Positions 1,820-4,821 of a DNA stretch of 64,000 nucleotides are shown here, piece by piece (the first letter of the stretch is position 1; each line of letters opens with the position of its first letter). The translations under genes and the position numbers were made by a program. Below the pieces are notes generated by a model. That model searched no databases, had not been told where the DNA came from, and worked only from the letters and a program-made list of their open reading frames with translations. This stretch comes from an uncultured Thermoplasmata archaeon (lineage in GTDB: Archaea; Thermoplasmatota; Thermoplasmata; RBG-16-68-12): contig CAVYJM010000011.1 of the NCBI GenBank assembly GCA_963768855.1, positions 64,001-128,000 of the forward strand, given 5' to 3'.

Positions 1820-3217
1820 ATGCGCCACGATCCACGGAGGGTCCATCCGTACATCCCGAACTCGGCGCCGGCCGCCAAGGAAGCCATGCTGCGCGAGGTC
1901 GGTGCCGAGAGCGAAGACGATTTCTACGAGGACATCCCCGAGGGGCTCCGGTTCCGCGGGCGGCTGGACTTGCCGGAACCCTTGACGTCCGAACACCTGC
2001 TCCGGAGGCACGTGGAAGGGCTCCTCGCCAGGAACCGCAGTTGCAAGGAGGTCCTGAACTTCCTCGGCGCAGGCTGCTACGAGCACGCCGTGCCTGCGGT
2101 ATGCGACGAGATCAATTCCCGCGGAGAGTTCCTGACGGCCTACGCGGGGGAGCCGTACGACGACCACGGCCGGTTCCAGGCCCTGTTCGAGTACGCGAGC
2201 CTCATGGGGGAGCTTCTGGCCATGGACGTGGTGAACGTGCCCACCTACGACGGCTTCCAGGCCACCGCCACCGGCCTGCGCATGGCGGCGCGGATCACGG
2301 GCCGGAACGAGGTCCTCGTCTCCCGCGCGATCGCCGCTGACAAGCTCTCCAAGATCCGCGACTACCTGAAACCCCGTCATTCCGTGAGGTTGTTCGACTT
2401 CGACGCATCGACGGGAGGGCCCGACCTCGGCTCGCTCGAGGCCCTGATCGGGAAGGAGACCGCCGCAGTCTATTTCGAGAATCCCTCTTACTTGGGCGTG
2501 ATCGCCACGCAGGGAGGGCGCGTCTCGGAGATGGCCCACGGCGCTGGCGCGCTGTCCGTCGTCGGTGCGGACCCGAGCACCCTGGGCATCCTCGCACCCC
2601 CCGCAGACTACGGCGCCGACATCGTCGTGGGGGACCTCCAGCCGCTCGGGATGCACATGCAGTTCGGTGGGGGGCATGCGGGGTTCATCGCCACCCGGGA
2701 CGAGCCGAAGTATGTGGCGGAGTATCCCTCCCGGCTTTTCGGGATCACCTCCACCTCCGTGGACGGTGAGTACGGCTTTGGCGACGTCGCCTACGACCGC
2801 ACGTCCTTCGCGAAGCGGGAGGCAGGCAAGGAGTGGGTCGGCACGGCTGCGGCCCTCTGGGGGATCACCGCCGGCGCCTACCTCGCCCTCATGGGACCCG
2901 AGGGGATGCGAGAGCTGGGCGAGTCCATGCTAGCGAAGTCGCACTACGCGGCGCGCCGCCTGTCGCGGATCCCCGGCGTCCGCGCACCGTATTTCCGGGG
3001 TCCGTTCTTCCACGAGTTCGTCGTGGACATCCGCCGCACCGGGAAGAACGTGGCCCAGGTCAACCGCGCGCTCCTGCGCCGCGGGATCTTCGGTGGCAAG
3101 GATCTCTCTCAGGAGTTCCCGGAACTCCGGGGGCGCGCCCTGTACTGCGTGACCGAGGTGGCCACCCAGGACGACTTGGACAGGCTCGCCGAAGCGGTCC
3201 GGGAGGTCGTCGCATGA
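1820..3217 (+). CDS. gcvPA: Glycine cleavage system P-protein subunit 1 (alpha), divergent
   Basis: FLGAGCYEH, RGEFLTAY, QALFEY, YDG, GGGHAGF, LxxRLFG motifs; ATGA overlap with subunit 2. The canonical TPYQPE and HIRREKATSNICT loops are replaced (see findings). Confidence 0.85.
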   Translation: MRHDPRRVHPYIPNSAPAAKEAMLREVGAESEDDFYEDIPEGLRFRGRLDLPEPLTSEHLLRRHVEGLLARNRSCKEVLNFLGAGCYEHAVPAVCDEINSRGEFLTAYAGEPYDDHGRFQALFEYASLMGELLAMDVVNVPTYDGFQATATGLRMAARITGRNEVLVSRAIAADKLSKIRDYLKPRHSVRLFDFDASTGGPDLGSLEALIGKETAAVYFENPSYLGVIATQGGRVSEMAHGAGALSVVGADPSTLGILAPPADYGADIVVGDLQPLGMHMQFGGGHAGFIATRDEPKYVAEYPSRLFGITSTSVDGEYGFGDVAYDRTSFAKREAGKEWVGTAAALWGITAGAYLALMGPEGMRELGESMLAKSHYAARRLSRIPGVRAPYFRGPFFHEFVVDIRRTGKNVAQVNRALLRRGIFGGKDLSQEFPELRGRALYCVTEVATQDDLDRLAEAVREVVA

Positions 3218-4821
3218 AGGACATCCCCGCCCTCCGGAATGCCGAGGGCACACCGCGCCTCCGGAGGTTCCACCAGGCCCGGTGGGACGAGCCCATCCTC
3301 TTCGAGCTGAGTGCCAAGGGGGAACGCGGCGTCCGGGTGCCCGAGGCGGAGCCCGGGATCCGGAAAGCCGTCGGAGACGTCGTCGGATCGCTGCCGAGAT
3401 CGGTCCTGCGCAGGAGTCCGCCCGCGCTCCCCGAGATCTCACAGAACCGCGTCCTGCGCCACTACCTGCGGCTGTCCCAGGAGAACCTCGGCGCGGACCT
3501 CAACATCGACGTGGGCCAGGGAACGTGCACGATGAAGTACAGCCCGAAGGTGAACGACCAGCTCGCGCGTCTGCCTCAGATGGCAGAGCTCCACCCGCTC
3601 CAGCCCGAGGAGACCGTCCAAGGGATCCTGGAAATCCTGTACCGCTTCGAGAGCTTCCTGAAGGCGCTCTCTGGCATGGACGCCTTCTCCCTTCAGCCCG
3701 GGGCAGGGTCCGCAGCGATCTACGCGAATGCATCGATCATCCGAGCGTACCATGAGTCCCGCGGAGAAGCGGCCCAGCGGCGGGAGATCATCACGACGAT
3801 CTTCTCGCATCCCTCCAACGCGGCCTGCGCGAAGACCGCGGGCTTCGACGTGGTGACCCTGTATCCGGACGCGGACGGTTACCCAGACCTGAAGGCATTG
3901 AAGGCGGCCGTCTCCGAACGCACCGCGGGTCTCATGATCACGAACCCGGAGGACACGGGGATCTTCAACCCGAGGATCCGGGAGTTCGTCGACGCGGTGC
4001 ACGAGGTGGGAGGGCTGTGCGCCTACGACCAGGCGAACGCGAACGGCATCCTGGGCATCACGCGCGCACGGGAGGCGGGGTTCGACATGTGCCACTTCAA
4101 CCTCCACAAGACCTTCTCCACGCCCCACGGCTGCGGAGGACCCGCGGGCGCGGCGATCGGCGTGCGGAGGGAGCTCGCACGGTTCCTGCCGACCCCCGTG
4201 GTCGCCTTCGACGGGAAGCGGTACCGTCTGGACTACGACCGTCCCGACAGCATCGGGAAGATCCGGCCGTGGTACGGAGTCGCGCCGGTCATCCTGAGAG
4301 CCTACGCGTGGGTCATGAGCCTCGGCGCCGAGGGCCTGCGGGAGGTGGCTAGGGTCGCCGTCCTGAACAACAACTACCTGCTCAAGCGGATGCTCGAGAT
4401 TCGGGGCATCCAAGCACCCTACGCGAAGGGGAAGCGCCGCATCGAGCAGGTGCGGTACAGCTGGGAGGAGCTCGCCCGCGAGACGGGCGTCCACACCGAA
4501 GACCTCGGCCTACGGGCCGCAGACTTTGGCGTGCACTATTGGATGAGCCATCATCCTTGGATCGTGGGGGAGCCCTGCACGCTCGAGCCGACCGAATCGT
4601 ACTCAAAGGCGGATCTCGACGAATACGCCGCGATCCTGCGCCATGTCGCGCAGGAGGCGAGGACGGATCCCGAGCGGGTCAAGACGGCGCCCCACAACAG
4701 CACGGTCCATCGCATCGACCCATCCCCCCTCGATGACCCAAGAGAGTGGGCGATGACTTGGAGAGGGTATCGGAAGAAGCTTAAACGCGGTCTCGAGTCC
4801 CGGGGAGGGAAGACGCCATGA
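3214..4821 (+). CDS. gcvPB: Glycine cleavage system P-protein subunit 2 (beta), PLP-binding, divergent
   Basis: ATG at 3214 overlaps the gcvPA stop. RHYLRLSQ, GTCTMKYSP, ITNP, DQAN, PLP-lysine motif HFNLHKTFSTPHG, EPTES. Confidence 0.88.
   Translation: MKDIPALRNAEGTPRLRRFHQARWDEPILFELSAKGERGVRVPEAEPGIRKAVGDVVGSLPRSVLRRSPPALPEISQNRVLRHYLRLSQENLGADLNIDVGQGTCTMKYSPKVNDQLARLPQMAELHPLQPEETVQGILEILYRFESFLKALSGMDAFSLQPGAGSAAIYANASIIRAYHESRGEAAQRREIITTIFSHPSNAACAKTAGFDVVTLYPDADGYPDLKALKAAVSERTAGLMITNPEDTGIFNPRIREFVDAVHEVGGLCAYDQANANGILGITRAREAGFDMCHFNLHKTFSTPHGCGGPAGAAIGVRRELARFLPTPVVAFDGKRYRLDYDRPDSIGKIRPWYGVAPVILRAYAWVMSLGAEGLREVARVAVLNNNYLLKRMLEIRGIQAPYAKGKRRIEQVRYSWEELARETGVHTEDLGLRAADFGVHYWMSHHPWIVGEPCTLEPTESYSKADLDEYAAILRHVAQEARTDPERVKTAPHNSTVHRIDPSPLDDPREWAMTWRGYRKKLKRGLESRGGKTP

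Follow-up and report, generated by a model that had tools for sequence, protein, structure and literature searches.

A pair of overlapping plus-strand genes at positions 1820-4821 of the 64,000-nt stretch of archaeal DNA analysed here (the window) resembles the glycine cleavage system's split glycine decarboxylase, or P-protein. The window belongs to contig C11 of a 2.87-Mb Thermoplasmata metagenome-assembled genome (MAG; 93.6% complete, 7.7% contamination). Sequence comparison predicts that the pair encodes an alpha2beta2-type pyridoxal phosphate (PLP) enzyme belonging to a distinct, uncharacterised and widespread sister family of the P-protein. In this family the scaffold that holds PLP is kept, and the active-site residues of the alpha subunit, together with several first- and second-shell residues of the beta subunit, have been exchanged for another, almost invariant set. 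The pair is likely to be part of a module that acts on something other than glycine and needs neither the H-protein (GcvH) nor the T-protein (GcvT).

Both genes were identified from the listing of open reading frames (ORFs) and their translations. The alpha-type product (PA) and the beta-type product (PB) exceed the equivalog cut-offs of the NCBIfam models for GcvPA (NF001696, 483 bits vs 364) and GcvPB (NF003346, 592 bits vs 441), and HMMER alignments matched them to chains A (E = 4e-75) and B (E = 3e-97), respectively, of the Thermus enzyme 1WYT. In PB the PLP residues are intact, namely the Lys in HFNLHKT, the Asp in YDQAN, and the stacking His in SHPSN, and all of them are 100% conserved in the clade described below. 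PB also keeps GTCTMKY, and PA keeps the TAY tyrosine. The substrate loops are different. The active-site loop of PA, one residue shorter than in Thermus, is TAYAGEPYDDHG in place of the canonical TxYTPYQPE(V/I)SQG. The mobile loop is RTSFAKREAGKEWVGT, and PA reads YDRTSFAKREAGKEWVGT where canonical enzymes have QTREQHIRRxKAxSNICT. In human numbering, Q366 has become Tyr, C382 has become Gly, the equivalents of R373 and K376 are Lys and Ala, and the position of Y164 is lost through the one-residue deletion. The Gly that replaces the active-site Cys of the mobile loop is 98% conserved in the clade.

We took the roles of these residues from secondary sources. Human Y161 and Y164, in the TxYTPYQPE loop, are part of the active site, Q366 belongs to the lipoamide channel, R373 and K376 lie at the predicted H-protein interface, and I381 and C382 adjoin the active site on a loop that moves upon PLP binding (PMC7259800, PMC4767401). 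Also in the active site is the equivalent Cys of E. coli (C335) and Synechocystis (C353); when it is lost, activity falls more than six-fold (PMC10185560). The replaced positions of PA thus align with residues that characterised P-proteins have in the active site, the lipoamide channel, and the predicted H interface, in agreement with the initial annotation, which had placed the rewritten alpha segments at the active site and the H-protein interface. Its coordinates and quoted motifs were also exact (EFLTAYAGEPYDDHG and RTSFAKREAGKEWVGT in PA; GTCTMKY, QPGAGSAAI, FSHPSN, YDQAN, and HFNLHKT in PB).

The variant motifs of PB are QPGAGSAAI, NPEDTG, PHGCGGP, and HYWMSHHP. At four canonical segments, AAGAxGE, AHGTNP, DGANLNA, and PPTxYFP, it has GAGSAAI, SHPSNA, DQANANG, and HYWMSHHP instead, and three of the rewritten motifs had not been listed in the initial annotation: NPEDTG (canonical NPNTLG), HYWxSHHP (canonical HPPTxYFP), and PHGCGGP (canonical PHGGGGP). 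Thermus 1WYT carries the canonical forms at these segments in the HMMER alignments, and AHGTNP, DGAN, and PPTxYFP are retained by nearly all of about two dozen canonical PB representatives. Against these enzymes, and against the canonical pair of the same genome, the rewriting of the loops is real, as had been proposed.

That canonical pair, a second gcvPA/gcvPB for which a search had been recommended, is present on contig C12 and gave 560 and 698 bits with the same two models. It reads AEFYTAYTPYQPEVSQG, REQHIRREKAMSNICT, QPAAGAQGE, AHGTNFA, YDGANLNA, and HPPTVYFP, and its PB is about 45% identical to the window PB. Because a canonical gcvPA/gcvPB exists elsewhere in the genome, the window pair is a paralog; the cell's glycine decarboxylase is the one encoded on contig C12. 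The canonical pair lies on a separate contig of a MAG with the contamination given above, but 71 of the 81 genomes sampled from the class carry its type. A canonical P-protein also accompanies the variant in five other genomes, all of them large or complete, and adjoins gcvH in three of these; the two forms co-exist in all six genomes examined.

Relatives of the window pair are numerous. Metagenomes contain many PA homologues, at 68-98% identity. When one genome per species was scanned, 582 stretches encoding relatives were obtained, and the best 80 of these were examined. They are 66-86% identical to PB and come from more than ten phyla of bacteria and archaea. They include Thermoplasmata, Bathyarchaeota, Brockarchaeota, Anaerolineae, Chloroflexia, Acidobacteriota, and Aminicenantes, as well as Actinomycetes (Kitasatospora, Streptomyces, Actinomadura, Longispora), Burkholderiales (Pseudomonadota), Ignavibacteriales, Lentisphaerales, Thermotogae, and Firmicutes. 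The variant residues (SHPS, NPEDTG, YDQAN-N-G, HYW-SHHP, TAYAGEPY-DHG, and RTSF--RE-GKEWVGT) are 82-100% conserved in the 80 relatives, and for this reason the differences from canonical enzymes are not drift. An exhaustive profile search showed a gradient of identity from 66% to about 45%, followed by ordinary GcvPB from near 40%.

In a maximum-likelihood tree, a variant clade of 25 rows was recovered with 100% support in the Shimodaira-Hasegawa-like approximate likelihood-ratio test (SH-aLRT) on a branch of 0.38, and the genome's canonical PB fell outside it. The 25 rows include four divergent representatives and three plasmid-borne relatives (Bacillus sp. F19, Rhodococcus qingshengii, and Paracoccus aminophilus; 46-61% identity). 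The window PB, with all signature motifs present, lies inside a 19-row core clade (96% support), where it pairs with another Thermoplasmata sequence and is nested among bacterial ones on very short internal branches. With this clade and its nearly invariant motifs, the distinct P-protein subfamily foreseen in the initial annotation is supported, and so is its expectation that the pair would be annotated automatically as glycine dehydrogenase: both subunits pass the equivalog cut-offs, and the PA homologues are named glycine dehydrogenase subunit 1 or GcvPA wherever source names are given. No study of the clade was found in the full-text literature on P-protein paralogs and structures, gene clusters, AcoX, and hydroxylysine catabolism.

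Within the class the variant is rare. In the sample of 81 genomes, canonical-type PB occurred in 71 (38-46% identity to the query) and the variant in two only, this genome (100%) and one other (60%). The variant is therefore accessory and patchy, and was probably acquired by transfer. The other genome carries a kinase-fold gene, PA, and PB at 53-60% identity to the window proteins (locus L109, G020:C217:1-4186) in addition to a canonical PB, which suggests that the module entered the class more than once. DNA nearly identical to the window occurs in wetland and freshwater-sediment metagenomes; positions 1400-6700 were found in wetland, sediment, and soil DNA runs only, with no RNA run listed.

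The genomic context of the 80 loci also sets the family apart. The recurrent order is PA, PB, a protein of about 378 aa with an NAD-kinase fold (46 of 80 loci), and a short-chain dehydrogenase/reductase (SDR) of about 254 aa (52 of 80, often in two copies), as judged from our own ORF heuristics with a filter on third-position GC content (GC3). The SDR is the most frequent partner, and it follows the pair in the window as well. The plasmid-borne relatives keep SDR genes beside the pair, and those of Rhodococcus and Paracoccus keep the kinase-fold gene too. In 1.42 Mb around the 80 loci, tblastn with the genome's two H-type proteins gave no match, which leaves every locus free of gcvH within 10 kb, and with its gcvT a single one, and neither gcvH nor gcvT was found in the neighbourhood of the window pair. 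Because the pair departs from the canonical enzyme in every substrate-loop, channel-loop, and genomic-context feature tested, we do not file it as a glycine decarboxylase.

Beyond this core the flanking genes differ. The plasmid-borne relatives are flanked by M20/ArgE deacylases, aminotransferases, amino-acid or 2-keto-3-deoxygluconate (KDG) permeases, and FAD oxidoreductases. Actinomycete copies of the module lie divergent to an operon that encodes a sugar-binding protein, permeases, a beta-galactosidase of glycoside hydrolase (GH) family 42, and a GH63/YgjK-like glucosidase, with an FCD-GntR regulator at the end. Other flanks hold peptide-type ATP-binding cassette (ABC) systems, a class-III aminotransferase with an M20 peptidase, GH20, MttB-family proteins, and LysR regulators. 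When 92 non-core neighbours from the 80 loci were scanned against Pfam, no family dominated (ABC permeases, six; M20, M28, GntR/FCD, and SBP_bac_1, three each), and the flanks therefore name no substrate. In three loci, two of Anaerolineales type and one of Aminicenantes, a non-pyrrolysine MttB-family methyltransferase is directly upstream of the variant pair (L053:7054-8529, L054:142-1617, L055:6609-8084), on the same strand as the pair in L053 and L054.

In the window, the ATG of PB overlaps the stop codon of PA as ATGA, and the SDR start overlaps the PB stop in the same way at 4818-4821. The three genes are thus translationally coupled in this Thermoplasmata copy. The SDR exceeds the cut-off of the glucose 1-dehydrogenase subfamily model NF005559 (267 bits vs 215). 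The closest relatives of the window (L020, L021, and L024) share the whole neighbourhood, that is, the aldehyde dehydrogenase, the saccharopine-dehydrogenase-like protein, PA, PB, the SDR, the hexapeptide protein, and the thioesterase (Table 1). The hexapeptide protein scores 124 bits with NF050158 and 102 bits with the PaaY model, both under their cut-offs; its gene keeps the same order in L020/L021 and L024 and is a neighbour of the pair in this lineage only. The same restriction applies to the thioesterase, which is supported by the 4HBT/Acyl-ACP_TE Pfam families in L020 and by synteny in L024. At the place corresponding to the truncated aldehyde dehydrogenase, L020 has a full-length Aldedh gene.

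Table 1. Genes of the variant pair and its surroundings, with the tdh-kbl operon of the same genome. Positions without a contig prefix refer to the window.
Feature	Position	Strand	Remarks
PA-like, alpha-type subunit of predicted P-protein-like PLP enzyme	1820..3217	+	465 aa; translation, NF001696, 1WYT_A, motif conservation in 80 relatives
PB-like, predicted beta-type PLP-binding subunit	3214..4821	+	535 aa; translation, NF003346, 1WYT_B, motif tables, tree
Classical short-chain dehydrogenase/reductase (SDR)	4818..5609	+	263 aa; coupled to PB; best match PRK06138, 301.6 bits
Hexapeptide-repeat protein, gamma-carbonic-anhydrase / PaaY-like	5681..6226	+	about 181 aa; in-frame ATG at 5681; 71 nt after SDR
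YbgC/FadM-type acyl-CoA thioesterase	6223..6675	+	150 aa; start overlaps stop of hexapeptide gene; TIGR00051 65.7 bits (cut-off 68.7)
Saccharopine / carboxyspermidine dehydrogenase-family protein	499..1659	-	386 aa; divergent from PA, 160-nt spacer; neighbour in this lineage only
Aldehyde dehydrogenase, C-terminal 159 aa	1..482	+	gene begins before the window; convergent with saccharopine-dehydrogenase-like gene; betaine-aldehyde / aminobutyraldehyde dehydrogenase-type matches
UbiA-like prenyltransferase, COG3199/AcoX-type kinase-fold protein (presumed), tdh, kbl operon	C6:1015847-1020348 (L105:2848-7349)	-	also L111-L115

The product of the gene at 499-1659 matched PDB 4INA (E = 5e-39) and the carboxyspermidine dehydrogenase 8DEB (E = 6e-28), and scored 114 bits with NF043000 (cut-off 800). 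This saccharopine/carboxyspermidine-dehydrogenase family is expanded in the genome, with nine matches including this one, two of which are adjacent and possibly halves of one gene. The carboxynorspermidine decarboxylase gene nspC was not found in the genome at its 93.6% completeness. That the P-like enzyme might be the missing decarboxylase of a carboxy-polyamine route with this dehydrogenase-like neighbour is no more than a speculation, in view of the many paralogs and the confinement of the neighbour to one lineage. On the other side of the cluster, the gene at 6672-8774 on the minus strand is convergent with the thioesterase gene and is kept beside the cluster in related Thermoplasmata contigs. 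Its product, of 700 aa, has a thioredoxin/DsbH-like domain at the N-terminus and, as recognised from the L020 homologue, a GlcNAc-2-epimerase-like domain.

The kinase-fold protein, the partner in most other lineages, carries a GGDGT motif and is named predicted polyphosphate/ATP-NAD kinase by JGI. Sequence comparison gave it no relative in the PDB, and NCBIfam has no model for it. We take it to be COG3199, presumably the group that includes AcoX. Its gene is absent from the window and from L020, L021, and L024, and in the second Thermoplasmata genome with the variant it stands directly before PA. The only homologue in the genome of the window, at 40% identity, is on contig C6, in an operon with a UbiA-like gene, threonine 3-dehydrogenase (tdh, 404 bits vs a cut-off of 380), and the glycine C-acetyltransferase Kbl (464 bits vs 460). 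Such a gene occurs in 59 of the 81 sampled Thermoplasmata genomes, and the order kinase-fold gene, tdh, kbl was seen in four of five other loci. We ruled out the C6 gene as a dedicated partner of the variant in trans, because it is lineage-wide and tied to the tdh-kbl operon. The operon would link the AcoX family to threonine cleavage. AcoX itself is a protein of unknown function that accompanies the acetoin-cleaving complex and butanediol dehydrogenase (PMC10107126).

The known system closest to the pair is the split GcvPA/GcvPB (EC 1.4.4.2; Thermus thermophilus 1WYT). Fold, alpha/beta architecture with overlapping genes, PLP Lys, pyridine-nitrogen Asp, stacking His, GxCTMK, and the TAY Tyr are common to both. 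In contrast, the alpha loops TPYQPEVSQG and REQHIRREKAxSNICT are other conserved strings in the window pair, and the beta motifs AAGAxGE, AHGTNP, NPNTLG, DGANLNA, PHGGGGP, and PPTxYFP are all replaced; the variant clade is separate, lacks linkage to gcvH/gcvT, and occurs instead beside an SDR and, in lineages other than this one, beside the kinase-fold protein. In Tdh-Kbl, as in the variant module, a dehydrogenase gene is coupled to a fold-type-I PLP enzyme, and in Thermoplasmata a kinase-fold gene joins the operon. Kbl is a homodimer of the 8-amino-7-oxononanoate synthase (AONS) family, however, unrelated in sequence to the P-protein beyond fold type, and its CoA-dependent cleavage to glycine and acetyl-CoA is an analogy only. 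The acoXABC cluster likewise has a kinase-fold-type protein beside a C-C-cleaving enzyme and a neighbouring alcohol dehydrogenase (PMC10107126), but its cleaving enzyme depends on thiamine pyrophosphate and lipoyl groups rather than PLP, and the window operon has no AcoX-like gene.

The explanation that we favour with moderate confidence is that the pair is a sister-family PLP enzyme which, independently of H and T, acts with the SDR on a hydroxylated amino compound. What follows on the kind of substrate, on which step comes first, and on how the bond is cleaved is our inference. The enzyme would work without H-, T-, and L-proteins and together with the coupled SDR, on a hydroxy-amino acid or a vicinal amino alcohol. 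The SDR would oxidise the carbinol adjacent to the amine-bearing carbon, and the P-like enzyme would bind the resulting amino-ketone via PLP and cleave the bond that glycine decarboxylase breaks to release CO2. A beta-keto-alpha-amino acid could be decarboxylated in this way, or the amino-ketone could lose an acyl group as with Kbl; either would leave a glycyl- or aminomethyl-PLP carbanion, which would then be protonated. Oxidation followed by PLP-dependent cleavage is favoured because of the tdh-kbl and aco parallels. In both systems a member of what we take to be the same kinase-fold family stands beside a dehydrogenase and beside an enzyme that breaks the ketone so formed next to a C-O or C-N carbon, in support of two enzymes acting in sequence. 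The exact sequence of SDR oxidation and then cleavage is nonetheless tentative, and rather doubtful in its details. The downstream thioesterase and gamma-carbonic-anhydrase/PaaY-like protein would fit an acyl-CoA or CO2 product, as a weak and lineage-specific hint.

Several observations weigh against this explanation. The Arg residues equivalent to R368 and R374, two of the three mobile-loop Arg, are conserved. As gcvH is present in every carrier genome checked, it could serve in trans, and since both subunits are above the NCBI equivalog thresholds, residual glycine activity is possible. The kinase-fold partner of most lineages is missing from the window operon; if the kinase is essential to the chemistry, the window copy works differently or needs a kinase in trans. 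PDB and NCBIfam gave generic SDR relatives only, with no specific assignment of the SDR. The flanks outside the core vary widely between phyla and indicate no single substrate, and no biochemical or genetic data on any clade member were found in the literature.

A bolder version of the same explanation, which we regard as a long shot, is that the P-protein fold has been re-used for a new class of PLP reaction, and that AcoX/COG3199 is a general fourth component of systems for the cleavage of ketols and amino-ketones. The leaving group would be an acyl group instead of CO2, in a Kbl-like retro-Claisen cleavage of the amino-ketone made by the SDR with CoA, phosphate, or water as the acceptor, and the same glycyl- or aminomethyl-PLP carbanion would arise without a lipoyl carrier. 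In this archaeon the downstream acyl-CoA thioesterase would take the place of the AcoX/COG3199 component of aco, tdh-kbl, and this module.

Among the alternatives, the one that survives best, though we consider it unlikely, is a kinase-dependent route in which the COG3199 partner O-phosphorylates a hydroxy-amino compound and the P-like enzyme acts as a PLP phospho-lyase or as a decarboxylase of the ester. Hydroxylysine kinase with 5-phosphohydroxylysine phospho-lyase, and aminopropanol kinase with its phospho-lyase, have a parts list like that of the full module (kinase, PLP enzyme, dehydrogenase or aldehyde dehydrogenase), and PduX with CobD follows the same kinase-then-PLP logic; none of the hydroxylysine or aminopropanol enzymes is homologous to the module, and the likeness is an analogy only. 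A candidate substrate would be 5-phosphohydroxylysine derived from the glucosyl-galactosyl-hydroxylysine of collagen, with the aldehyde product passed to the neighbouring aldehyde dehydrogenase. Consistent with such a route, the gene for the kinase-fold protein with its GGDGT motif stands after PB in 46 of 80 loci, and before PA in the other Thermoplasmata genome and on the plasmids of the Paracoccus and Rhodococcus relatives. The sugar-uptake/GH42/GH63 operon with its FCD-GntR regulator, from which the actinomycete module diverges, would point to a collagen glycoside. The pocket has gained His, Ser, Thr, Arg, and Lys (HYWxSHHP, RTSF..R..GK) that could hold a phosphate, and an aldehyde dehydrogenase and a saccharopine-dehydrogenase-family gene flank the window copy. 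However, the window operon lacks the kinase gene and the genome's only homologue sits in the lineage-wide tdh-kbl operon, the role of the SDR is left unexplained, the glycosidase neighbours are confined to some lineages, and the kinase-fold family is without known activity (PMC10107126) or a PDB relative by sequence.

The initial annotation had instead suggested a P-protein that may decarboxylate another amino acid and load what remains of it, the amine fragment, onto a lipoylated carrier; this carrier would be of H type and used in trans. As it supposed, glycine is probably not what the enzyme acts on, although the reaction need not be a decarboxylation. The loading of a lipoylated carrier, on the other hand, now appears improbable. 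In its favour, the fold and the PLP residues are kept, the two mobile-loop Arg are conserved, gcvH occurs in every carrier genome checked, and in this lineage the second gene downstream encodes a gamma-carbonic-anhydrase-like protein. Yet the tblastn search brought up no carrier gene around the 80 loci, other residues stand in place of the lipoamide-channel Gln and the active-site Cys, the partners are the SDR and the kinase-fold protein rather than H, T, or L, and there is no T-like partner to unload the carrier. The genome's canonical H-protein (C10:86249-86602) reads VESVKAV, and a second GcvH-like protein (locus L013, C17:142547-142879, minus strand; 80 bits to GCV_H) reads VESGRYF at this place and therefore lacks the lipoyl-lysine. 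One carrier genome, of Streptomyces, has a single gcvH.

That the pair is an ordinary second glycine decarboxylase isozyme, with neutral or regulatory sequence changes, seems more improbable still. Its scores above the equivalog cut-offs and the name given to it in all databases agree with an isozyme, but the changes fall at positions that hardly vary in canonical enzymes, and the residues put there hardly vary across domains either, the pair is not linked to gcvH/gcvT at the 80 loci, a canonical copy exists alongside it in all six genomes examined, and it has a different and conserved set of operon partners. We attach very little weight to a biosynthetic enzyme resembling alpha-oxoamine synthases, in which a glycine-PLP carbanion would attack an acyl thioester instead of lipoamide, the SDR would reduce the amino-ketone to an amino alcohol, and the kinase would phosphorylate it in other lineages: the chemistry would parallel Kbl, AONS, or serine palmitoyltransferase (SPT) followed by a ketoreductase, and genes for an acyl-CoA thioesterase and for a hexapeptide protein resembling acyltransferases follow downstream in the window, but the neighbours elsewhere are catabolic (transporters, deacylases, glycosidases, and GntR, LysR, or sigma-54 regulators) and no acyl carrier or acyl-CoA ligase recurs.

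What the window adds is an archaeal form of the module without the kinase, a canonical copy in the same genome, the rarity of the variant across the class, and the tdh-kbl link of the kinase-fold family. Several hundred bacterial and archaeal species genomes carry these genes annotated as gcvPA/gcvPB, and metabolic reconstructions therefore credit them with glycine cleavage, or with a second copy of it, a reaction that is probably not the pair's. Conservation in the family is extreme, with archaeal and Streptomyces members about 70% identical; the family is also mobile, and it is tied to two other unassigned proteins, one of them taken to be of the AcoX group. To our knowledge, the function of AcoX has been without assignment since the 1990s. 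Identification of the substrate would give three protein families a function in one step, and could show how a carrier-dependent decarboxylase was rebuilt into a stand-alone enzyme.

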